Notes under the pieces: generated by a model | The model's database searches: none | Told to the model about the DNA's origin: nothing | What the model saw: the letters and a program-made list of their open reading frames with translations, nothing else | Part shown: positions 3,001 to 54,150 of the stretch, piece by piece | How positions within the stretch are numbered: position 1 is the stretch's first letter | Layout of the letters: the number at the start of each line of letters is the position of its first letter | Position numbers and translations under genes: made by a program | IMG/VR virus record: IMGVR_UViG_3300046740_000391 | Span: 4,640-68,639 of that record | Reading direction: 5' to 3' (one strand) | DNA from: a virus | Length of the DNA: 64,000 bases

Positions 3001-4025
3001 CTTCGGTGGCCAGGACCGGCACGTTCACCAGAACCGCCAGTGACACGGTCACGATCGCCACTTCGGTGGCCAGGACCGGCACGTTTATCAGGACCGCCAG
3101 TGATGCGGTTACGACGTCGGATGCGATCGTTGGAGTCAAGTCCCTCAATCGCACGGCGTCGGATGCTGTCGCAACGTCCGATTCCGTCGCGCGAACGGGT
3201 ACGTTCAATCGCACTGCCTCCGACACGCTCACGGTCGCCACGAGCGATACGGCGATCAAGGGCCGATCGGTCACTGTCAGCGACACGCTCACCACAGCTG
3301 ACTCGGTTGCACGAACGGGCTCGTTCAACCGCACAGCGTCCGATGCGGTCACCACATCCGACTCGGCCACTGAGTCCACCAGCCGTTCGCGGACTGCATC
3401 AGACGCTGTCGTTACAAGTAGTGCGGTCGCGCGGACGGGCAGCTTCCAACGCACAGAAACGGACGCTGTCAGCACAGCCGACGCCGTTACTCGCACGGGG
3501 TCGTTCCATCGAACGGCTGCGGATAGTGTTTCCACTGCCGACGCGATTGTCGCCGTGGTGGCGAACTACTCATTTACCGCACAGGCCATTGTCAAGCGCA
3601 CAGTAACCGCTACACTGTCCGCTGACGCCGTCCTGTTGCAGGCGCCGACCGCCAGCTTCACAGCTGACGCCGTACAACTGAAGACCGCTCTCACTTCATT
3701 CACCGCCGACGCGGTGTTTGGAACAACCCGAACGGCCGGGGTGACGATTGATGCGGTCCTTCTTTCCCCTCAGACGGGTTCGTTTACCGCCGATGCGCTC
3801 ATCCTCGGCGGGTCGGGCAGCTTCACAGCTGACGCGTTCATCAACCTCAATATTTCGAGAAGCTTCGTTGCCGCGGCCTTCATTCTCGCCGCGCCCACCC
3901 AGTTCGAGCCGATCGATGGACTCAACACGGCGGACATGATCGCGGGTCCGTTGGTGGCGGATCTGATCTCGGGTCCCCTCACCGCCGACGTGATCGTTGG
4001 TCCGCTGGCGGCCGACCGGCCATGA
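3..4025 (+). CDS. Large Thr/Ser-rich fibre or head-appendage protein with LamG/ConA-like domains, 20-aa RTASD repeats and C-terminal FTADA repeats; 5' truncated
   Basis: Frame is open from nt 3. Two LamG-like units (PTVLADSP.AY..HVV.T..G...Y..G..G....VA.Y..LT...HY). Repeats of type RTASDTLTxATSVARTGTF. Confidence 0.75.
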   Translation, partial: DLRFDLFGDNTIDMVAGGAGGHSLGAISANTWYTVQFWIDGTAHTGGWSLDGVTQGAPPVSVSSSTFSTLVLGHTSAVSVGAYSLYFDDILVTLNTGDYPFAQGYDGPSDTWVLGAYRTADDTLTITTAPVGARSLVRTASDTVTLAYAPTVLADSPSAYYRMGDASGPTVTATVGNNLTATGSPTFGAPGLLTGDANKAMTFVAASTQEVTGSDSGLPTGNNPWTVETWIKTSSATEQGLVIWGVQDGGGHEGGGLGLYLGAIVLNNSTNFNFFGSTHTIDDNVRHHVVLTWDGTTMLAYKDGAQIGSGYAPGALNVTLNGTLWLAFRNSLYLDGTMDEVAIYPSCLTPTRIAQHYTMGSNGVADTQNLVRTASDAVAVHTGRLGAPPTAVLDCGGEAASEPGTPSHWSSTSGTVTKDTTHVRSGTSALKMLAVGDSKVTHTLSAGQRHLVGRFSVWLPSTPAGNATIVQWNDGVATRFLYRDPDTFLYMDFGQSTLPFPLDQWVTIDFHLDTTANPHVWDWKINGVAQTQKTRAAAASDIVSVAFQAENTGLDTWFDDIALSYTAGDYPIPNGEALGTAPESWLTYEQTQTTKNLVRTASDTLTVATSVARTGTFLRTTGTYRPTVLADSPVAYWQLGEASGNPQDSSGNGHNVTVVGGTPTYGQTGPIVGTTAIAFNGTTDYFTAPNDPGFDVGDVFTEEAWIIPGATGASRGVIGMGGAQYLRVLNTGELTLSAENSGIIVRSTVNPTASAWNHVVATKNGATVKLYINGADVTGTVTNQTFAPFAGILHIGQGNSGTEFFNGSIGQVAVYNYALTAAQVRAHYTAGGDALAASDAAVGVVTASGASRTAADAVTTSDAVTRTGTFNRTASDTLTTATSVGRTGTFNRTASDAVTTSDAVTRTQTLNRTASDTLTIATSVARTGSFHPTAADALTTSDAVARTGSFNRTASDTLTIATSATALGPRTASDAVTTSDAVSRTGTFTRTESDTLTVATSVARTGTFTRTASDTVTIATSVARTGTFIRTASDAVTTSDAIVGVKSLNRTASDAVATSDSVARTGTFNRTASDTLTVATSDTAIKGRSVTVSDTLTTADSVARTGSFNRTASDAVTTSDSATESTSRSRTASDAVVTSSAVARTGSFQRTETDAVSTADAVTRTGSFHRTAADSVSTADAIVAVVANYSFTAQAIVKRTVTATLSADAVLLQAPTASFTADAVQLKTALTSFTADAVFGTTRTAGVTIDAVLLSPQTGSFTADALILGGSGSFTADAFINLNISRSFVAAAFILAAPTQFEPIDGLNTADMIAGPLVADLISGPLTADVIVGPLAADRP
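2557..3560 (+). repeat. Coding tandem repeat, about 60 bp / 20 aa (RTASD(T/A)(L/V)TxxxSVARTG(T/S)F)
   Basis: Near-identical 60-bp units around 2981-3110; more diverged copies on both sides. Confidence 0.9.
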
Positions 4026-5477: not shown

Positions 5478-6722
5478 GTGGCGAAGGTTCTTTGGCTCGG
5501 CGACGCCGGTTGTCATACCGGTTTCGCTCGGGTCACTCATTCGATTGGCGAGCGTCTCGTCCGTGATTACGGTCACGAGATCCACGTTCTCGCCTACAAC
5601 TTTCGCGGTGACGCATGGCCGTCGCTGCTCTATCCGGACCAGCAGTCCTCGCTGAGGCTGTATCGGCCCAATGCGATCAACGCGACCGACGTGTGGGGAA
5701 AGAGCCGCCACATCGAGATGCTCGCGAAGATCGAACCGGACGTTGTGGTCATGCTCCACGACGCCCAGTTGCTGTTGAACTTGTTGTTCGAGAACCAGTT
5801 CGACAAGGACAACATCTTCATCAAGTACCGGCCGATCATCACCTACATCCCGATCGACAGCTACAACCGGCCTCCGGGCTGGAGCACGCTGCTGACGAAG
5901 ACCACCAACGCCGTGGCCATGAGCAAGTTCGGTCAGGAGTCGATGCCTGGCTCACAGCTTGTCTACCACGGCGTGGACACCGATCGCTTCTATCGAGTCA
6001 GCAAGGACCGGCCGATCACCACCAGCTCGGGCATCGTCTGCACGTCCAAGACGGACTGCAAACGGGCGTTCGGCTGGGACCCTGACGACTTCTGGATCCT
6101 GCGCGTGGACAAGAACTCGGGGCGCAAGGATTTTGGCGCAACGATCCGCGCGGTCTGGCCCGTGATGAAGCGGCACAAGAACGTGCACATGCATCTGCAC
6201 ACGACGTCAGGCCGGAGCCAAGAGGACGCACTGCTAATCACGGACATGCTCACTCGTGAGCCTGACGTACACGATCGGTTCAGTCTCCCCGGGCTGCACA
6301 ACAGCTTCGAGGGCTGGCCCGAGGAGGATCTGGTCGCGCTGTACAACGCAGCCGACCTGTTCGTTTCCACCTCGCGCGGCGAGGGCTATGGGTTGACGCT
6401 GGCCGAGGCCGCAGCGTGCGGTCTCCCCATCGTGGCCCAGAACGTGTCGGCCATCCCCGAGGTTGTGGGACCCGGCGGGATCTTGGTCGAGCCGCAACGC
6501 TTGATCACCACCCCGAACGGCTCGGATCTCTGGCTCGCCGACGTCGATGCCTTCACCGACGCCATCGAGAGGATCTACGGCTCCAGGGGCGCTCAGCGCG
6601 ACCTGGGCGAGGCAGCTCGGGCCCACGTTGCTCAGTTCAGCTGGGACGACGCGACCACGTCGTTCAACACCTACATCAACTCTCTCGCGACCTGGGAAGA
6701 ACCCGCGGTCGCAGCCGTATAG
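5478..6722 (+). CDS. Glycosyltransferase, GT4 (GT-B fold)
   Basis: TGFARVT, YHGVDT, RKD, LYNAADLFVSTSRGEGYGLTLAEAAACGLPIV, FSWD. Confidence 0.92.
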   Translation: MAKVLWLGDAGCHTGFARVTHSIGERLVRDYGHEIHVLAYNFRGDAWPSLLYPDQQSSLRLYRPNAINATDVWGKSRHIEMLAKIEPDVVVMLHDAQLLLNLLFENQFDKDNIFIKYRPIITYIPIDSYNRPPGWSTLLTKTTNAVAMSKFGQESMPGSQLVYHGVDTDRFYRVSKDRPITTSSGIVCTSKTDCKRAFGWDPDDFWILRVDKNSGRKDFGATIRAVWPVMKRHKNVHMHLHTTSGRSQEDALLITDMLTREPDVHDRFSLPGLHNSFEGWPEEDLVALYNAADLFVSTSRGEGYGLTLAEAAACGLPIVAQNVSAIPEVVGPGGILVEPQRLITTPNGSDLWLADVDAFTDAIERIYGSRGAQRDLGEAARAHVAQFSWDDATTSFNTYINSLATWEEPAVAAV

Positions 6723-32703: not shown

Positions 32704-33077
32704 CAGTTGCCCACCAGCCCTCGCTCCACGAGCGACCGTAGATACCAGCGGAGAAGCTGTCGATTGGCGGTGTTCCACTGGTGTCCGGCTCGGGCGCCGT
32801 CTTCGGTGTGGCCTTGGCAGAGCGAAACCAGATGTGCCGGGTCACTCGGTGCCCTCACGCCCATCCGCTGCTCGTCTTTGATGTGGTCCAAGGTCAAGCG
32901 ACCCCAGCACGGACCCGATGTGATGGGGGACAGAAATGACGCGACGCATCCCGCCGTCGTCGACACCGCCCGCAGCTTCCCTCCCCGCAGCTCCCACTGA
33001 TGCAGATCCCGACCGAGCACCAGTAGTCGCAGCTCCGGGGTGACCGGATCCTTGTGTCCGGGCGAGCGGTTTTTCAT
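32703..33077 (-). CDS. Divergent HNH-like protein
   Basis: VLGRD...C...C.GRLTLDHIK...LVSLC..H. Confidence 0.65.
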   Translation of the reverse strand: MKNRSPGHKDPVTPELRLLVLGRDLHQWELRGGKLRAVSTTAGCVASFLSPITSGPCWGRLTLDHIKDEQRMGVRAPSDPAHLVSLCQGHTEDGARAGHQWNTANRQLLRWYLRSLVERGLVGN

Positions 33078-33402
33078 CTGCCCTCACGACCGCCATGGAA
33101 TGGGCGGCTTTCCAGAAGTATCCCACGGGGTTCGTACGGGACATTTGCGCGGCCCGCTGAGCACAAACCAGGTATGCCATCGCGCAGTCGGATGGGTCGT
33201 AGGCACAGTGCTCGGAGCTGTACGGGTTGAGCGTTTTGCAGTGCCGCGTGCGCCAGATCTTGCGCAGGTCGCCGAACTTTGGCCGGAACCCGAACGATGC
33301 CCAGGTGGTCGCGATCCTGGGGTCGACCTGCTCACGGGCAAACTCCGTCGCAACGACGCACGGGTGGGATTTGGGGGGAGTAGACTTCGCTGGTCCAGTC
33401 AT
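32842..33402 (-). CDS. Hypothetical Cys/His protein, possibly replication-initiator-related
   Basis: GGGAG RBS before ATG 33402; NPVGYFW motif; next to DnaA-like boxes. Confidence 0.45.
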   Translation of the reverse strand: MTGPAKSTPPKSHPCVVATEFAREQVDPRIATTWASFGFRPKFGDLRKIWRTRHCKTLNPYSSEHCAYDPSDCAMAYLVCAQRAAQMSRTNPVGYFWKAAHSMAVVRADEKPLARTQGSGHPGAATTGARSGSASVGAAGREAAGGVDDGGMRRVISVPHHIGSVLGSLDLGPHQRRAADGREGTE

Positions 33403-33516
33403 TTGGACTCCCCAAAGAGGTGCGGTCGGGGCCCCGTCAAGAACCCCGACCAAACCGATGAACGAGCCGCTGACCCAGCTCGCTCAGACATAACTCTACC
33501 AGGATCCCGAGGACTT

Positions 33517-33547
33517 TTGTCCACAGGTGGTCCACAGCGGTGGAAAA
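33517..33547. promoter_or_regulatory. Three DnaA-box-like 9-mers at 11-bp spacing (candidate origin)
   Basis: TTGTCCACA 33517, TGGTCCACA 33528, reverse TTTTCCACC 33539. Confidence 0.6.
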
Positions 33548-33559
33548 CAGCCGTAAATC

Positions 33560-33850
33560 CCAGGCTAGGCAACGAGCCGAACGGGTGATTCGAGGGTCGA
33601 TCGAGCCGCACGAGAGGTGCGGGATCCCCTCGGAGAAACACCTACGAACCCCCGTCCTGTGCCCGGTAAGGGCAGCGGCAGCTGGTGTGGGGCGTCCACG
33701 ACGGCAGACCCGACCCTGAGTACCAGCTGAACACGTGCTGAGCGACGCCGAATGTCCGATGGCACGCACCGTCCCCCGCAAGGGGGCGGTGTGCCTCGCT
33801 TCTACCTCGTCCTCTGGCATATGGGAGTTGAGGACGCTGGGTCAAGGTAG
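33560..33850 (+). ncRNA. Putative large structured ncRNA of unknown family
   Basis: Six consecutive stems with GNRA-type loops and G-U pairs on +, in a ~440-nt gap without a credible ORF. Confidence 0.65.
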
Positions 33851-34181
33851 TAACCGGGCCAGCAGGAACGCGGTGTAGCCGAACCCGAAGATGGCCCACG
33901 GGGGACCACCGAGGAACCCGGTGATCAGGGAGATCGCCACGCCCATGATCAGGTTGGCGGCCAGGTCGACCTTTTCCTTGTGAGTCACCGCACCGACCAT
34001 CCGCAGTGCGGACACCGGTACCCCTCGTCCCAATCGAATAATTCCGCGCGCATCGCTCCGAGCGTGGCGATCGTGTTGTCGATCCAGTCCTGGGCCTCTT
34101 TGTGGGTCTGGCACCGACGATGGACGTGGTCAGGACGCTGAGCTGCGTATCGCTCGTCGCTGACGTAGATCGTCACGATCG

Positions 34182-34748
34182 TCATTTCTGGTCCGCGGGC
34201 ATGGTGATCGGGATCGGGCCCCTGTTGGGCACAATTCCCCAGCCGCCGCAGCCCTGGCACGGGCCCTTTTTGTTGTACGGGTCCTTGTGCAACGAGTGCT
34301 TGTTGGTGCCGAACCGCGCCTTGATCGTCCGCGATCGGCATCTCGGGCAGACTGCAACCGCCCCGAAGTCGATCTTGCTGGGCATCTCGGTGAACCGGTA
34401 CTCCGATGCCTCTGGCGTCTCCGGCTCGTTCTTGATGATCTCGGGCTCCGCGGGCGTGTAGTCCCAGCTGCCGTCAGCTCCCTGCTTCACCGCATCGTGG
34501 AGCGATCCGCGTGACGGGCTGACCGTCTGCTCGATGACGAGCCTGTACTGCCAGATGTCGCGGTCAGGGTTCGGGTGCCGCCGCTGCTGGATCCGGTGAC
34601 CTTCGCTGCGCAGCTCCCGCAGGCGCTTCAGGCCCTCGGAGCCGCCGACGCGCTCGTTGGCAAGATCGGGCCCGTCAACCCAGCTGTTCGCGTTCCGCCG
34701 CAGGACCCACAGCACCTGGTCCTTCCGGGTGAGGTTCTCCGTATTCAT
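34182..34748 (-). CDS. HTH DNA-binding protein with C-terminal zinc finger
   Basis: VL..LR...WV.G..L...RLRELR.EGH.I; CPRC...CQGCGG. Confidence 0.65.
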   Translation of the reverse strand: MNTENLTRKDQVLWVLRRNANSWVDGPDLANERVGGSEGLKRLRELRSEGHRIQQRRHPNPDRDIWQYRLVIEQTVSPSRGSLHDAVKQGADGSWDYTPAEPEIIKNEPETPEASEYRFTEMPSKIDFGAVAVCPRCRSRTIKARFGTNKHSLHKDPYNKKGPCQGCGGWGIVPNRGPIPITMPADQK

Positions 34749-34954: not shown

Positions 34955-35872
34955 TCAGCCGTACCCGTTGCCTTCATTGCGCATCTGTACGTCAACTTCG
35001 GCGTGACGGAGATCCAGGTACTGGATCAGTTTGCTGGCGTCGTCGGGCTCGATCTCACGCAGCGCGGCGAGGATGGTCTCGGACTGCTTCGTCTCGTCGT
35101 CGGGGAGCACGATCTCGATACCCAGCTCGGAGTTGATCATCTCGACCACCTCCGTTCGGCTCATGTCCAGCTCCTTGCTGGCCTCAGCGATCTTTCGCAG
35201 CTGTACCGGCGATGCCTTCGTGGAGTGCGCACCGCGCGTGACGTTGCCGCGGGTGCCGGTTGAGACGCGCGGAGCCTGGCGGGGGCCCGACGATGCGGTG
35301 CGCTCATCGACCCGGGTGTCCGACTCGGGATCGTCGCCGGTCTCGATCTTGAACAGCTTCATCAGGGCGTACTTCTGGCTGCCGGTGATGGCCTTGTACA
35401 CGCCCTTGTCGCCCTTGTCCGCGCCGTGGCCCGGCATCCGGAACGAGAACGACTCCTTCCCGTCGGACACGGTGTACTTGATGATGACCTCGGTGATCGG
35501 GTTCTCCGTGTCCTGGCGGTAGAGCTTCACCTTCACCACGTCGGGGATGATCGCGATGCCCGCAGCGGACAGGTATTGGCGAACCGCCCCGACGAGGTCG
35601 CCCTCTGTCACGTAGTGGTACTTGTGGAAGGCGTTGTAGCCCTTCTTGGGGATTGTCCCGACGTGGCCGGTGATGCGGGCAATCTTCTGCTGGAGGGTGA
35701 GGCCCTCCCAATCCTCGTTGAAGATCTGCAGGCTGGCGGCGACGAGATCCGTCTCGTGGCTCATTCCCGCTGGTGCTTCGATGGTTTCGACCTCTTCCAG
35801 GTCAGCTCCGGGTGCTGGGCTCGGGTCTGGTCTGGTCGTCACTGGTGTCGAGGTCGTTCCGGCTCTGGTCAT
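34955..35872 (-). CDS. erf: ERF-family ssDNA annealing protein
   Basis: KKGYN.FHKYHYV...G.GAD.GDKGVYKAITG.QKYALMKLF.I.TGDDPE. Confidence 0.9.
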   Translation of the reverse strand: MTRAGTTSTPVTTRPDPSPAPGADLEEVETIEAPAGMSHETDLVAASLQIFNEDWEGLTLQQKIARITGHVGTIPKKGYNAFHKYHYVTEGDLVGAVRQYLSAAGIAIIPDVVKVKLYRQDTENPITEVIIKYTVSDGKESFSFRMPGHGADKGDKGVYKAITGSQKYALMKLFKIETGDDPESDTRVDERTASSGPRQAPRVSTGTRGNVTRGAHSTKASPVQLRKIAEASKELDMSRTEVVEMINSELGIEIVLPDDETKQSETILAALREIEPDDASKLIQYLDLRHAEVDVQMRNEGNGYG

Positions 35873-37929: not shown

Positions 37930-38700
37930 TCATGCGTTGTACGCGTCGCAGATGTCGCGGTAGCCGCACCACCCGCAGGCGTGCCCCTGGAGACCGGTCG
38001 GCAGGAACGTCCCCTCAGAGACGGCGTGCCGGACCAATTCAAGGATGGACGCAAAGTTGCTGATGGCGTTGTCGCTGACGGGACCGGACGATGCGACCGG
38101 CCAGTGGTACGGCTTCTGGGTCCGGACCATGTAATCCAGGACGACGTCGGCTTCCTTGCGCCCGGTCTCGTTCCGGTAGGCCATGGCGTAGCCGATCATG
38201 TTCAGCTTGTAGTCGCGCGAGCCCTCCGACGGTCGCTTGCGCGTGTACTTGTAGTCCCGGACGCGCTCCTTGTCGTCGACCAGGTCAATCGAATACCCGT
38301 ACGGGATGTCGTTGACCATCATCAGGCCCTCGTGCTCCACCCACAGCGGCTGGATCCCCGGGGCCACACTCTCGTGGTACACCGACAGCGTCTTGATGCC
38401 GGAGTCCTTGGCCTGACCGACCGTCTCCTCTTTGTCCGGTTCGGCCTCTGGCGCCTGGCTGTCGAACGAGGTGCTGAACACGTCGAGCACGTCGTTCAGA
38501 GGTAGGTCGGCCTTGCTCTCGATCTTCTGCGCGTAGTTCGTCTCCTCAGCACTGTGAGCGCTGATGCCGATGATCGAGCGGACCGACGGCGGTCGCTTGA
38601 ACTCGTAGACGTACGCGTACTCCCACTGCTTCGCGCAGCGCAGGAACGTGTTGACGCTGCTCGCGCTGAACGGCTGCTCGCCGTCGACGTCGAAGCTCAC
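37930..38700 (-). CDS. PD-(D/E)xK (RecB/Cas4-like) exonuclease
   Basis: SASSVNTFLRC.KQW; IDLVD...DYK; C.WC.Y...C. Confidence 0.88.
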   Translation of the reverse strand: MSFDVDGEQPFSASSVNTFLRCAKQWEYAYVYEFKRPPSVRSIIGISAHSAEETNYAQKIESKADLPLNDVLDVFSTSFDSQAPEAEPDKEETVGQAKDSGIKTLSVYHESVAPGIQPLWVEHEGLMMVNDIPYGYSIDLVDDKERVRDYKYTRKRPSEGSRDYKLNMIGYAMAYRNETGRKEADVVLDYMVRTQKPYHWPVASSGPVSDNAISNFASILELVRHAVSEGTFLPTGLQGHACGWCGYRDICDAYNA

Positions 38701-39308
38701 CGGTCGGTCGGGATTTGACGGACGATCTCTACCTCAGCAGCGACACCGGTGCGTTCGGTATCGCGAGGCGTTTCCCACAGGGCCCGTTCGCCTTCGTAGC
38801 CACGAAACTTGCCCAGGCACTTGGCCTTGGTGCCGTCGTTGTATGTGATCTCGATCACGTAATACCGATCGGGTTCGGGTTCTTCGACGGTCATCATCGG
38901 ATCCAACAGTGACCCTCCTGCGTGGTTTATGCCAACGACGAACGATGCGTGCGTCGCACTGAAACGGCATCGCGCCCGCGCGCGCGGCCGGTCCTGTGCG
39001 CGTCGTCAATCGCGCGAACCAGCCGCGCGTGCCGACGCGCGCCGATGTTGTACACGACCTTCGTGCTGAAGGTCGAGGTGGGGTTGTTAGCCACGAGCGT
39101 GAGCAGCGTGGCGGTGTTGCGTGCACAGCGAGCGTGCGCGCAATCCTCGCAGGTGGCGTCGAGCAGCAACCTGATCTCGTCGATCAGTTGTCGCTGGCTC
39201 ATGGCTTCCTGCGGGCGTCTCATATGGGTGGAGTTTACCACGAACGCATTGTTGATCTGGAGGGTGGATGATGCGACCATCTCAGTGACCGCCTATACAG
39301 GGGACTGC

Positions 39309-51150: not shown

Positions 51151-52166
51151 GCGGGATTAGTACGTGGACAGTGCGATGATCGTGACCACCAGCGCGATCC
51201 ACGCGAAGAACAAGCACAGCGCGGAGAAGAACACGCGCTGCACCCACACCAACCATCCCTCGGGGACGAACAGCGTGGCCAGGCTTGCGCCCAGCATCGT
51301 TGCGATGCTCATCGTGAGCATGAACATGAACGGGTTGTCCATCACGCCGACCGCATGAAGCGATCGCCATAGCCGAACCCGAGGCGAGTCTCGATCGTGG
51401 CAATCGAGAGCCGATCGCCGATCTCGATCGCCTTGTCCAGCAGCTTGACCAGCCACATGATCTCCGCGCTGAGCGGCGCTGTTGCAGCTGCCTGCTCAGC
51501 ACGGGTGGGGTCCAGATGGGGTCGGAACACCGGGATGCCCTCAGGCGTGGTGGTCCACTGGCCGACACCGGCATCGCCCTGTGCCTCATCGGTGTATCCG
51601 TACATCGCCATAGCGAACCTCCTGTATGGGTGACGTGTGTGAGCCGAGCAACGAACGTTGCTCATGCAACACACCCTCAACGCAAACGAGCGCTGCTGGG
51701 TGAACACCAACGTGATGATGTCCACCCAGGAGCGCTCGTAGCAGCTCCTGTATTCAGTTAGGACTGGCCGCTAGGACTACCGCGAACGGCGGAACCGACG
51801 GGACCGCATCGGCCCATCGGAAGACTTCCGGTTCGGCGACGAGGTGCGGTACTCATCACCCGTGGACGCTTCTGCGGGCTCACTCACGATGCGACCCGCG
51901 CCGCTAGCGTCAGCGGTCAGGTCGACAGCGTGACGCTCCCGCATCAGTCGATCGATAGCGTGAACATCGTCGTAGAGACGAGACGACATGGTGGAACGAT
52001 GACCTCATGCACGATGGGGACGATGTGCGACGAGCGCAGCAACGCGACGGTGCGTGACCGTGGGGTCAAACACCGCCGCGTTGTAACGCACGATCGCACG
52101 AACGATCAGCGCGTTTGCCAGTACGGTGCGACCCCGGAACCCTTGCGGATTCCGGGGTCGCGCGGC

Positions 52167-52532
52167 CTAGCGGATCGTGCCGGTGCACCCCGCCTTGTCC
52201 AGCGTGGCGCAAGGCTCGCCGGACTTGCGGGGCGTCGCGAAACCGTGCGCGGCACCGTGCACCGTTTCCCCGCCATGCGACCAATCGGCGTCGACCGTGC
52301 ACGAGTAGCCGGGGACCGCGAAGATCGCAGCGGCCTTGCGCGTGTCCTGCATGGACAGCCCCTGTAGCACGGCGGGACGCCCGTCGACGGCAACACCGGC
52401 GACGCTCACGCGAGCCGATGCCGCGAACGGGGACGCAACCGGCGCAGCGGCCGGTGCACTGGTGGGAGTCTCGCCGGACTTGAGCGCGGCGACGACAGCG
52501 GCGACGATTGCCGCGAGATCCTGATCGGCCAT
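52167..52532 (-). CDS. First gene of the leftward arm, hypothetical
   Basis: GGGAGG RBS; followed by a GCAA-loop hairpin. Confidence 0.6.
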   Translation of the reverse strand: MADQDLAAIVAAVVAALKSGETPTSAPAAAPVASPFAASARVSVAGVAVDGRPAVLQGLSMQDTRKAAAIFAVPGYSCTVDADWSHGGETVHGAAHGFATPRKSGEPCATLDKAGCTGTIR

Positions 52533-52678
52533 GGTAGGCCTCCCGTGGGAAAGGCCGCGTGCGCGCCTGTGTGGCGGGCATGGTTCGGCCTAGGGACACC
52601 TTCTCACCCCCCCCGGTCGGCGCGGCCAAACGCCCCTGAACGGCTTTCGAGTGGCGTGGGAAAAAACCGGGCGCACAC

Positions 52679-52707
52679 TTGACAACCTAGGTGCAAAGTA
52701 GTATGCT
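52679..52707 (+). promoter_or_regulatory. Consensus sigma70-like promoter for the rightward arm
   Basis: TTGACA-N17-TATGCT in the divergent intergenic gap. Confidence 0.8.
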
Positions 52708-54150
52708 ACTGACACTAAGCAGTCAAGCTACTGCGAAATCGGCCCTGGACAAGCCGTTTGGCCCCAAATTGGACGAAATGGGCCATTTTCCTCGTACTAT
52801 GCTACGAAATATTCGTGCTCATAAGGTGGAACGGGTGTCAGAAAACACGGGCCAGTACAAATGACCAGCGCCACGGTCAAGGTCTGGTATTCGTTCGGGC
52901 AGGACGGGCGGCGTCGGAAGCTTGAGAGCCTGGCGCAGAGCACCGGGGTGAAGCTGTTGCTCACCAGCGTTAGCCGGGGTTGGTTCACCACCACCATCAA
53001 ATACGAGGTGAGTGGCGATGCTGAGCAGATGGGTGCATTCCAGGCTCGATTGGCGGAGATCGTATGAACATCCTCGCGAGGTTGCTGCGGACTGACAGCC
53101 TCTGGCAGATCCAGTCGCCGACCGGTAGCACAACAACGATCTGGAACAGCGGCAGCGAGCGTCTCGACCACCAACACGTCGTGGCGATCTATCCCGGGTC
53201 CCGGGTCAGCCGCGTGACTGGCTGGCGCTACTGGGCCGCGCAACTCACCCGTCCCCGACTCTCGTGGGTCGAGTTCCTGGTGATCGTCTGCCTCGTCCAG
53301 TTCATCTTCAGGATCCTGTGAGACCCCTGGCTGAGATCCGGAGCGATATCGCCTTCGAGATGATGTCCACCGGGTCGAGTTCGCTGCTCGAAGAGTTCGA
53401 GGAAGCCGTCCGAGCTGACGAGGTTCTGGACAAGTGGGACAAGTGGGACAAGTGGGCGACCACGGTCAGCCCAGCTGAGTACATCGGATTGCGCGAGGCG
53501 CTGAAGGAGGTGGTTCGAAGCTTGGTACCCAAGTACCACCCAGATCATCCAGAGGACCACGGGTTCTCATTCGAGACAGGCAGGATCCTGGCGGATCTGC
53601 TGAGAAGGGAATGATGGAGGAACAACTGGCCGATTTGATCCATGAGGCCCGATGCGGGCCCGAAGAGTGGAAGAGCAGCGAGCACATCCCCTGGACCGAT
53701 GATCACCGGGAATGGGATCTGGCGACAGCACGCGCACTGCTGATGCTGGGCGTTTGGCCACCGAAGCTGGTGGAACAGGTGAAAGCCTCGATCGAGGCTC
53801 TGCCATTGCTGCCGGTGCAGCGGATCAATCCAGAGGCCGATGCGTACGTCATCTGGGGATCTGCCGCGGTGACAACCAAGGGGCGCGCGGTCGAGATCAT
53901 CAACAGGAGCAAGGGGGATTCGTGACAGACGAGTTTCAAGTTGTCAGCGACGAGCTTCGATCGAAGCGGGTCGCGAACATCGGGATCAGTCCGGCGACCC
54001 AAGCGCTGATCGACGGCAAGACCATTCTGGTCCCGGGTGATTTCAAGTCCGGGCGCTATTTCAACACGCTGCGTCGAAACGGTATGCGGCTTCGGCAGCA
54101 CAGGACCGAAGAGGGCATGGTGCTGTGGGCCGAGAAGATCGAGCCCGCCG

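Follow-up and report, generated by a model that had tools for sequence, protein, structure and literature searches.

A probable compact and divergent EGFOA-class RNA gene in a gene-free gap of an uncultured soil phage

The window analyzed here is a 64,000-nucleotide stretch of virus record IMGVR_UViG_3300046740_000391, and the element under study lies in it between two minus-strand reading frames, a downstream gene of 186 aa (32842–33402) and an upstream ORF (33842–34114). Both show GC3 signal (at 33850–33960 in the upstream ORF, whose true start is probably further in) and neither matches Pfam or PHROGs; searches of these two frames and of ORFs 33985–34341 and 34182–34748 against the two collections gave no HNH or other family, and an Erf recombinase gene was recognized in the neighbourhood by the same means. 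Outside the RNA, two minus-strand features belong to gene 32842–33402, an extended −10 that resembles a promoter (33501–33493) and a leader hairpin (33451–33424); judged by eye, the hairpin has compensatory changes in the related loci L003 and L074, and TGn-TANNNT is kept in L003. A consensus promoter and terminator scan of 33200–34100 found no promoter and one terminator-like site, which is outside the element, and a tRNA/tmRNA scan of the window found none. The initial annotation had called the interval the largest gap in its densely coded arm, a ranking that could not be confirmed; a crude GC3-based caller (which misses genes) also leaves 51726–52860 and 38055–38921 empty.

GC3 periodicity is absent from 33403–33841 and reaches 0.8–0.95 in the flanking minus-strand genes. 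An ATG-started minus-strand ORF of 127 aa (33437–33820) covers the stretch and could be taken for a small protein gene, but third-position GC in its frame is only 0.50–0.77 (0.8–0.95 in real genes), a tblastn comparison with the closest relative, L003, splits it between two frames (35–51% identity, as against 73% for the DNA), and none of the ORFs of at least 60 aa from the other loci clusters with it. This overlapping ORF, the longest of the stretch and the one that the initial annotation had singled out for checking, thus changes frame in the closest relative, and the chance that it is a gene is negligible. Nucleotide identity between the window and L003, which belongs to a sister virus, is 73% over 277 nt, the flanking proteins of the two viruses are 40–42% identical, and 1-nt indels separate the two sequences. 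Contigs of four public DNA runs over 33380–33900 have the window sequence, and so offer no natural variants for a pairing test. The stretch is thus non-coding and conserved, and its helices covary (below). The initial annotation was right to propose a structured non-coding + strand RNA here, antisense to the surrounding minus-strand genes.

Relatives were retrieved with two motifs taken from an alignment of the window, L003 and L002 and combined in the pattern CCCCCGTCCTG-N(25-55)-AMGGCAGACC; relatives made up 6 of the 9 viral, 3 of the 16 genome and about 27 of the 43 metagenome stretches so obtained, and the two motifs are invariant in this set because it was gathered by them. A scan with the 16-mer CGAMGGCAGACCCGAC returned 76 stretches with L007 as the sole relative, and one with GGTAAMGGCAGACCTGG returned 12, among them L013 (already in the set) and the new relatives L152, L153 and L162; L156, from the latter scan, passed the filter and was left out of the member count. 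Four retrieved loci (L009, L010, L012 and L014) were discarded by eye as chance matches, and L027, which had passed the regular-expression filter, was dropped since its flanks could not be aligned and it had no match to model R1 (below). Distant-mode blastn with the window stretch, with the low-GC type and with the L036 type as queries matched none of 50,697 deposited phage records, and hence no cultured carrier was found.

Plain MAFFT alignments of these sequences are not structural, and RNAalifold yielded almost nothing from them, so models were built from the two closest sequences, the window and L003 (R1, and R2 for the 5′ domain), and the rest were realigned by Infernal; alignment A11, of the members above cut-off, was too poorly aligned for a third model. 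In alignment A6 (15 sequences) 87.2% of the cells are paired against 66.1% in shuffles and 41–50% in slid controls, although alignments fitted to the model in this way inflate pairing and G-U counts; double changes occur in 26 of 36 pairs, and 0 of 500 shuffles came as high. R2 matched at full length in 8 of the 38 loci searched, and in the resulting 5′-domain alignment (A10, 8 sequences) 92.8% of the cells pair (76.9% in shuffles), and none of 500 shuffles attained its covariation score. The covariation among homologues that the initial annotation had proposed to look for is therefore present in both alignments.

The RNA is made of three domains, a three-hairpin 5′ domain, a core that corresponds to the Rfam family EGFOA (RF02955) and a long 3′ terminal hairpin. 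All coordinates that follow refer to the + strand. Just 5′ of the conserved 5′ domain the sequence itself shows a hairpin, P0 (CCAC-AGCG-GTGG, 33532–33543), which is probably the 5′ end region of the RNA; hairpins of different sequence are seen by eye at the P0 position in the alignments of L036, L065, L061, L015 and L002. P0 also overlaps two 9-mers that resemble DnaA boxes. The 5′ domain (33548–33635) has the invariant single-stranded sequence CCGYAAA-CCCAGGMUA, followed by hairpins Ha (33568–70/33576–78), whose counted pairs never vary, Pa (33589–93/33601–05) and Pb (33606–11/33617–22, loop GAGAG), both with double changes. The six stems first drawn in this region can all be drawn on the + strand where they were placed, and compensatory changes back four of them (P1, P2 + P4, the cap and the terminal hairpin). 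The cap, CCGCAC-GAGAG-GTGCGG, is Pb, and is 91.7% paired in 8 sequences. The stem at 33563–78 was off register by five bases, since relatives pair the second GGC (33568–70) with 33576–78, and below its cap the long stem drawn at 33583–33643 gives way in relatives to the local hairpin Pa, the 3′ strand of this lower portion being the family's pseudoknot strand (below).

The core spans 33623–33727 and corresponds to RF02955 positions 1–108. The unpaired motif CCGUCCUG (33652–59) lies directly 5′ of P1 (33660–64/33670–74, loop GGUAA), which is the GCCC-GGTAA-GGGC hairpin seen at the outset and is 98% paired, with double changes in 4 of its 5 pairs (15 sequences, as for the other core helices). 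The long helix P2, CAGCTGGT/ACCAGCTG (33679–86/33722–29), is 85% paired with double changes in 8 of 8 pairs, and the sub-hairpin that it had been said to enclose is P4 (33689–92/33714–17), which is 96% paired and whose enlarged loop includes GGCAGACC at 33703–10. A variable linker (33730–33765) follows, with a small hairpin (33744–47/33753–56) and the motif GAYGGCA (33758–64), which is conserved in the R1 alignment; a candidate 3-bp helix, 33735–37/33763–65, is 77.5% paired in 15 sequences. A long-range helix that RNAalifold placed at 33652–56/33758–62 is 64% paired with zero double changes and gained no support. The terminal hairpin (33766–33792) has an outer helix 33766–71/33787–92, a bulged U33772, an inner helix 33773–77/33782–86 and a GCAA loop; it was correctly anticipated, is 95% paired with double changes in 7 of 11 pairs (15 sequences), and an equivalent C-run/G-run hairpin is seen in every sequence group. 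The nested tail stems at 33802–33850, which share bases with the stop codon of gene 33842–34114, are found in the window only; single-sequence folds of eight relatives show no common hairpin there, and judged by these folds the stems are not conserved. The alignments contain a short conserved motif, CCTCYGGCAKAT, at 33811–23 within this tail region.

The + strand is the folded strand. In the supported helices G-U cells outnumber A-C cells by 47 to 8 (G-U counts being inflated by the fitting of the alignments to the model), and Rfam matches are confined to the + strand, both in agreement with the strand preference originally suggested. Folding energy, which was to be compared with shuffled controls, is unexceptional on this strand (z = −1.46, with 23 of 200 shuffles equally stable) and slightly better relative to shuffles on the minus strand (z = −2.11). 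This last value would suit a cis-acting part of the minus-strand transcript, a terminator or insulator before gene 32842–33402, in which case the + strand RNA would not be a separate molecule; also, in a minus-strand transcript the first structure past the stop codon at 33842 would be the strong G+C hairpin 33766–92, and just outside the element the next gene has its promoter-like −10 and conserved leader hairpin. However, the pairs preserved by G-U on the + strand would turn into A-C mismatches in a minus-strand RNA (47 vs. 8 cells), hairpin 33766–92 is followed by no T-run on either strand, half of the lineages have the element co-directional with its neighbours, and about 25 unpaired bases whose conservation extends from low-GC phages to Actinomycetota would be superfluous in a terminator. 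We consider such a cis element improbable.

Is the core a member of a known family? The initial annotation could assign none, and at gathering thresholds Rfam indeed has no match in the whole window. In a cmscan comparison, however, window 33623–33727 (+) aligns end to end with all 108 positions of RF02955. This match scores 14.1 bits, well under the 37.7-bit gathering score, with E values of 2.3 and 6.7 in local searches and 0.15 over the whole virus; comparable RF02955 scores appear in 3 of 14 control genomes (E ≤ 10), and RF02955 fails to detect the closest relatives (L074 and L007/L003) at E ≤ 10 or E ≤ 0.01. The proposed Infernal comparison with Rfam thus yielded a full-length alignment and a score that does not by itself confer membership. 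The relatives supply the homology: the pattern derived from the window lineage recovered loci that score 40–65 bits on RF02955 (L017 65.2, L075 63.8, L047 60.0, L034 58.1, L008 44.9 and L006 40.8), every one on the strand equivalent to the window's + strand, and this ties the window by sequence to accepted members. R1 finds intermediates at E values from 1e-21 to 1e-4 and gives Rfam-passing members (L075, L037, L070 and L039) only 13.6–17.1 bits (E 0.06–0.4). The direct link between the window and RF02955 is therefore weak in both directions, and membership rests on the intermediates (L053, L052, L066, L152, L065 and others) and the two common motifs. R1 also gave a match at window 51925–52059 (12.4 bits, E 0.78), where Rfam finds nothing and ORFs overlap, and this was set aside.

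The window RNA resembles EGFOA in the order of its elements. A conserved leader is followed by CCGUCCU (CCGUCcU in the family) directly 5′ of P1, which has a GNRA-like loop, and these are represented in the window by CCGUCCUG and GGUAA; a long P2, which closes the core around the inner hairpins, encloses P4, and the large loop of P4 carries AGACC. The setting is alike as well, a gene-free gap, in phages and sporadically in bacteria. The window RNA differs in its P4 loop, which is 21 nt long, holds GGCAGACC, lacks EGFOA's GUAA and ends in CGA instead of UGG, the EGFOA loop being 17 nt with consensus GUAAAGCUAGACCUgGG in the cmscan alignment. It also lacks the optional P3, has 3 nt more between leader and core, and has a candidate pseudoknot reduced to 4 bp. 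Beyond the 108-position model it has the conserved three-hairpin 5′ domain and the long 3′ hairpin. In low-GC phages of 66–67 kb, EGFOA-assoc-1 (RF02970) directly precedes EGFOA and shares its strand (295.9 bits in L008), and the window 5′ domain holds this same position with 88 nt and three short hairpins, compared with a 250-position model for RF02970, which has no match at E ≤ 10 in the whole virus.

The pseudoknot just mentioned is best seen across the family, where a 5-bp complement between the leader and the P4 loop is perfect in 29 of 33 sequences and occurs in six covarying variants; controls gave 10% (shuffled upstream sequence) and 16% (cross-type pairs). In EGFOA it would join CCcAG in the leader to CUgGG in the 3′ half of the P4 loop. 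The candidate counterpart in the window pairs 33630–33633 (UCGG) with 33710–33713 (CCGA) in the P4 loop, and is suggested by homology to the rest of the family; in the window lineage 4 of 5 positions pair, and shuffles do so equally often.

From these observations we give a probability of a little under 0.8 to the reading that the + strand from 33532 or 33548 to about 33798 is a stand-alone structured non-coding RNA gene of about 250–270 nt and a compact, divergent member of EGFOA. We are somewhat more confident still that 33560–33850 of this uncultured soil phage holds a real EGFOA-class RNA gene on the + strand, and we read its centre as a divergent copy of the catalogued orphan family.

The surroundings of the RNA vary widely among its carriers. 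In the window, L003, L002, L074 and L047 it runs antisense to the genes on either side, and in the low-GC 66–67 kb phages, L013, L036, L051, L053 and L065 it is co-directional with its neighbours; no flanking protein family is common across the sequence groups. In the low-GC phages it has an endolysin gene on one side and a DnaE-type polymerase gene on the other, and lies directly upstream of the latter; elsewhere it accompanies a terminase-like gene (L006), a sigma-70 gene (L018) or housekeeping genes (L163/L164). On Actinomycetota chromosomes it lies among EF-G-like, aldehyde dehydrogenase, HIT and phosphoglucomutase genes, two of the genomes (G001 and G003) have two copies each, and EGFOA above cut-off is present in 4 of 151 genomes from the class of G001 and G003. 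A tRNA gene is found 260–285 nt upstream on the same strand in two bacterial loci (L047 and L163).

This variety bears on the functions first suggested for the RNA. A replication element (a pre-primer or R-loop RNA, or a primosome DNA site, at a phage origin with DnaA-box-like repeats) would fit the three 9-mers resembling DnaA boxes just upstream (33517–33547), the nearby Erf gene and the position before the DnaE-type polymerase gene in low-GC phages. But the same core sits among bacterial housekeeping genes, twice over in G001 and G003, and other phages have it beside lysis genes or the terminase-like gene; contexts that differ so much between carriers indicate that the RNA has no fixed link with an origin. 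The two arms of P0, moreover, account for two of the DnaA-like "boxes", and relatives keep this hairpin with different sequence; the G-U pairs indicate a folded RNA of one strand and not a DNA site, so a replication role is very unlikely. It is just as hard to credit that the RNA is a guide or scaffold partner of a neighbouring nuclease or of the 186-aa protein, as had also been offered. The 186-aa gene does always adjoin the RNA in the window lineage (homologues flank it in L002 and L074); outside that lineage the neighbours are unrelated and orientations vary, the RNA is kept where the 186-aa gene is missing, Pfam and PHROGs show no HNH, IscB/TnpB or other family in the four nearest ORFs, and Rfam gives no match to HEARO or other nuclease-associated RNA families. 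The ribozyme idea gained no support and met no contrary evidence. Replication primer RNAs and HEARO/omega RNAs are structured, a few hundred nt long and found beside replication or recombination genes; the window RNA differs from them in having no Rfam match to them and no constant origin or nuclease neighbour. Taken together, the varying orientation and neighbours and the copies among bacterial housekeeping genes argue against an origin primer, an antisense regulator and a nuclease partner alike.

A parallel may be found in GOLLD and ROOL (Weinberg et al. 2017, PMC5737381): these too are ornate phage RNAs with sporadic bacterial copies, the tRNA gene upstream on the same strand in the two bacterial loci is a further likeness, and so is the formation of oligomers by RNAs of the class in vitro. 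The window RNA is much smaller than GOLLD and ROOL and matches neither their sequences nor their Rfam models. We take the same paper as the reference for RF02955; the word EGFOA does not occur in its main text. According to a preprint (bioRxiv 10.64898/2026.07.01.735769), EGFOA RNAs oligomerize in vitro, with a trimer and a dimer reported for two members and seen by cryo-EM.

How might such an RNA act? It would be made as a separate transcript that converges with those of the minus-strand genes upstream (the consensus scan found neither promoter nor terminator for it), and would work in trans as a folded molecule, not by pairing with a neighbour's message. Its core may be shaped by the leader-to-P4-loop pseudoknot and the roughly 25 near-invariant unpaired bases, and the latter could form a binding surface for a protein, a ligand or further copies of the RNA. 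We are evenly divided on whether a trans-acting scaffold or RNP role is to be preferred over a cis role. Since this core is also found amid housekeeping genes in some Actinomycetota, the most likely role of the phage copy is to replace an RNA of the host cell or to compete with it.

The window element represents a high-GC branch of EGFOA, carried by a soil phage and overlooked by the Rfam model. The covarying 5′ domain and the 3′ hairpin are evidence that the conserved unit is longer than the 108-nt model, and a family-wide covarying pseudoknot is proposed here. The mixture of phage copies (in either orientation, with different neighbours) and chromosomal copies among housekeeping genes speaks more for an RNA that acts in trans with a partner on the host side than for a primer, leader or guide RNA. 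The gain is incremental in that the window element does not reveal the function of EGFOA. A bolder reading, which we hold to be unlikely, is that the window lineage is a natural minimal EGFOA of about 260 nt and that a cellular RNA has been taken up and shortened by phages time and again, to be used during infection to mimic it or to titrate its host partner. Were it true, the 108-nt Rfam motif would be the mere core of a larger functional unit, whose 5′ domain would be modular, given that L015 and L016 join the same 5′ and 3′ domains to a different centre, and soil actinophages would carry as a stand-alone gene an RNA with counterparts among the housekeeping genes of Actinomycetota.

The source virus record (68.6 kb, rated 96% complete), of which the window covers 64 kb at a G+C content of about 63%, has long + strand ORFs in the left half of the window, including one of 1867 aa whose size alone suggests the tape-measure gene, and minus-strand genes from about 30 kb onward, among them one for an Erf-type annealing protein (34955-35872, minus). 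The structured RNA at 33560-33850 lies in a stretch bounded by the start codon (33402) of a 186-aa minus-strand gene and the stop codon (33842) of the next minus-strand ORF, and DNA almost identical to 33300-34300 is present in soil and rhizosphere metagenome runs, with no RNA run among those listed. The third-position G+C of the flanking genes is 0.8-0.95, and no frame in 33403-33841 has a comparable signal. The longest overlapping ORF (33437-33820, minus) matches the closest relative in two pieces and two different frames (35-51% identity) and has no clustering partner among ORFs from other loci, and the window and L003, a related locus, differ by single-base indels within the stretch; these features together argue against conservation of this ORF as a protein, the alternative to an RNA that the initial annotation had raised. 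Two other regions of the window, 51726-52860 and 38055-38921, are also without a confident ORF by a crude GC3-based caller, and Rfam at relaxed thresholds gave no match in 51726-52860.

Positions 33403-33530 of the gap are, by sequence, accounted for by the next gene (32842-33402). A separate promoter and a structured 5' leader are probable for this gene, since a leader hairpin at 33451-33424 (minus) is kept by compensatory changes (judged by eye) in L003 and L074, another related locus; an extended -10-like motif, TGn-TANNNT, was read by eye at 33501-33493 (minus) and is also found in L003.

Similarity of the flanking proteins recovered only three related viral loci (40-59% identity), and the gap DNA is 73% identical to L003 over 277 nt and matches L002 in blocks. 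Relatives were retrieved with a pattern of two conserved blocks, CCCCCGTCCTG, a gap and GGCAGACC, which found 9 stretches in viral contigs, 6 of them relatives by flanking similarity. The pattern plus two bases found 16 stretches in one-genome-per-species bacterial contigs and 43 in metagenomes (3 and about 27 relatives, respectively, by the same measure); the remaining stretches look like chance matches. Removal of duplicates left a working set of 33 sequences, 9 or 10 of which are near-identical low-GC phages, so that independent lineages are fewer than rows.

The window alone has no Rfam match at curated thresholds, and at relaxed thresholds it has a single weak one, to EGFOA (RF02955) on the + strand, which scores 14.1 bits against a gathering cut-off of 37.7 and aligns all 108 model positions to 33623-33727. 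Judged by sequence, it is the relatives that settle the assignment to EGFOA of the RNA's core, which the initial annotation could place in no known family, because they score up to 65.2 bits (L017 65.2, L075 63.8, L047 60.0, L034 58.1, L008 44.9 and L006 40.8), with L052, L066, L036, L061 and L053 below the cut-off at 33.3 to 26.2 bits, all on the strand equivalent to the window's +. In cmscan alignments EGFOA consists, in order, of a leader (CCcAG), the CCGUCcU motif, hairpin P1, the bases GGcag and a long P2; inside P2 lie P3, which is optional, and hairpin P4, whose 17-nt loop is conserved. Every element except P3 is present in the window. Two weaknesses attach to the assignment: the Rfam model detects the window and its closest relatives (L003/L007, L074) barely or not at all, and R1, a covariance model built from the window and L003, finds the members that pass the cut-off at E values of only 0.06-0.4. 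R1 reaches the intermediates L074, L002, L053, L052, L066, L069, L152, L065, L023, L055 and L162 at E values of 1e-21 to 1e-4.

Covariation among homologues, which the initial annotation had proposed as a check, was measured on 15 loci aligned by R1 (164 positions, 36 pairs set by hand). Standard pairs fill 87.2% of cells versus 66.1% in shuffles, both sides have changed in 26 of the 36 pairs, all 500 shuffles fall short on each of five measures, and pairing falls to 41-50% when the 3' partners are shifted by 1-3 columns; fitting the alignment to R1 favours pairing, so the shifted controls and double changes are the more telling values. P1, P2 and P4 are paired in 98, 85 and 96% of cells, with double changes in 4/5, 8/8 and 4/4 pairs, respectively, and the terminal hairpin (33766-92) in 95% (7/11). 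A candidate long-range helix (33652-56/33758-62) is paired in 64% of cells with double changes in 0/5 pairs, and a candidate 3-bp helix (33735-37/33763-65) in 77.5% with 3/3. Single-sequence folding of eight relatives revealed no shared equivalent of the tail stems proposed at 33802-33850, and a short motif, CCTCYGGCAKAT, is conserved within that region.

A candidate pseudoknot is also seen in the family: five bases ending about 12 nt before CCCCCGUCC complement the five next to GGCAGAC on its 3' side in the P4 loop, and the two sides co-vary between groups (CCUCG/CGAGG, CCCAG/CUGGG, UCCAG/CUGGA, CCCUG/CAGGG, CUCGG/CCGAG). Within an 18-nt search space the 5-bp match is perfect in 29 of 33 sequences, versus 10% of shuffled leaders and 16% (27/165) of cross-type pairings. 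Only four of the five pairs (UCGG/CCGA) are possible in the window, L003 and L074, which on its own is no better than chance.

The + strand had been favoured from the outset, and this call holds: the supported helices contain 47 G-U versus 8 A-C cells (the window's own G-U pairs are in P4, Pa and the terminal hairpin), the Rfam matches agree, and the loops GCAA, GGUAA and GAGAG are compatible with it. Neither strand has a remarkable minimum free energy (z = -1.46 on +, -2.11 on -), so that folding is formally no better than in shuffled controls, an outcome that the initial annotation had named as counting against the RNA; we give this little weight beside the covariation.

The 5' domain was modelled separately (R2; window and L003, 90 positions) and searched against 38 loci, a set that omits L016, whose RNA is the same as that of L015. 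Full-length matches were found in 8 of the 38 (the window, L003, L002, L074, L061, L065, L036 and L015), and 92.8% of cells in their alignment are paired versus 76.9% in shuffles. The relatives' first hairpin, Ha (33568-70/33576-78, +), lies five bases out of register with the stem first drawn at 33563-33578; its three counted pairs are invariant and its length and loop vary (GGC-GCAA-GCC in L002, a 6-bp GGAGCG/CGCUCC in L061). It is followed by Pa (33589-93/33601-05, +) and Pb (33606-11/33617-22, +). Of the long interrupted stem originally described, the cap survives as Pb, and the part below it is absent from the relatives. Ahead of the domain the window, and by eye most relatives, have a small hairpin (33532-43). 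DnaA-box-like sequences at 33517-33547 overlap both of its arms; rather than DnaA sites they may represent a hairpin or an operator palindrome, because the relatives keep the hairpin with other sequences. L015 (260-585, minus; 45.5 bits with R2) and L016 share one window-type 5'-domain sequence and have a similar 3' ACGGCAG and C-run/G-run hairpin, with a differing centre between them from which CCCCCGUCCUG and GGCAGACC are missing. The RNA's flanking domains may be modular.

The EGFOA family itself was already known; what is new is a compact, high-G+C branch of it below the Rfam threshold, and a covarying 5' domain and 3' hairpin that lie outside the Rfam model.

The settings of the RNA are varied. 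It is antisense to its flanking genes in the window, L003, L002, L074 and L047, and co-directional with them in the low-GC phages, L013, L036, L051, L053 and L065. Neighbours are shared only inside the window's own lineage, and no flanking protein family common to all groups was found. In low-GC phages of 66-67 kb, one of them with terminal repeats and a completeness rating of 100%, its neighbours are an endolysin-like gene on one side and a DnaE-type polymerase gene on the other, and EGFOA-assoc-1 (RF02970, 295.9 bits) stands directly 5' of low-GC phage EGFOA on the same strand; EGFOA-assoc-1 has no match in the window's virus. Three Actinomycetota MAGs carry one or two EGFOA copies each, and 4 of 151 sampled genomes of the class holding chromosomal copies have EGFOA above the cut-off. 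Two of the MAG copies occupy long gaps with few ORFs, and the genes around them are of EF-G-like, aldehyde dehydrogenase, diacylglycerol-kinase-like, HIT, phosphoglucomutase and RelA/SpoT types; another copy adjoins a principal sigma factor gene. The gaps that contain the chromosomal EGFOA copies (L163:7258-8556, 1.3 kb; L164:5099-8319, 3.2 kb) are without a confident ORF by the GC3 filter and may hold further RNA domains. In 2 of the 38 loci, both bacterial or metagenomic, EGFOA is preceded at 260-285 nt by a same-strand tRNA gene (tRNA-Met, L047:3596-3669, minus; tRNA-Gly, L163:7681-7754, +), an arrangement similar to the closeness to tRNAs reported for GOLLD and ROOL. In L074 a fragment resembling a tRNA 3' end (T-arm and acceptor; 5913-5960, +) precedes the RNA by about 130 nt on the same strand; ARAGORN called no tRNA there, and it could be an attachment-site remnant. 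L074 also has a sub-threshold manA RNA match (3633-3868, +; 27.1 bits, cut-off 55.2, E 0.0037).

The varied orientation and neighbours and the chromosomal copies argue against a role bound to a replication origin or to a single adjacent protein, as had been suggested, and against one bound to a single neighbouring message; they fit a self-contained, trans-acting folded RNA. A preprint describes EGFOA as putative small RNAs that come from gene-free regions of unusual size and, in its passages on the family, gives no function (bioRxiv 10.64898/2026.07.01.735769); we therefore hold at about even odds that the RNA would act in trans as a scaffold or ribonucleoprotein RNA with a host-side partner.
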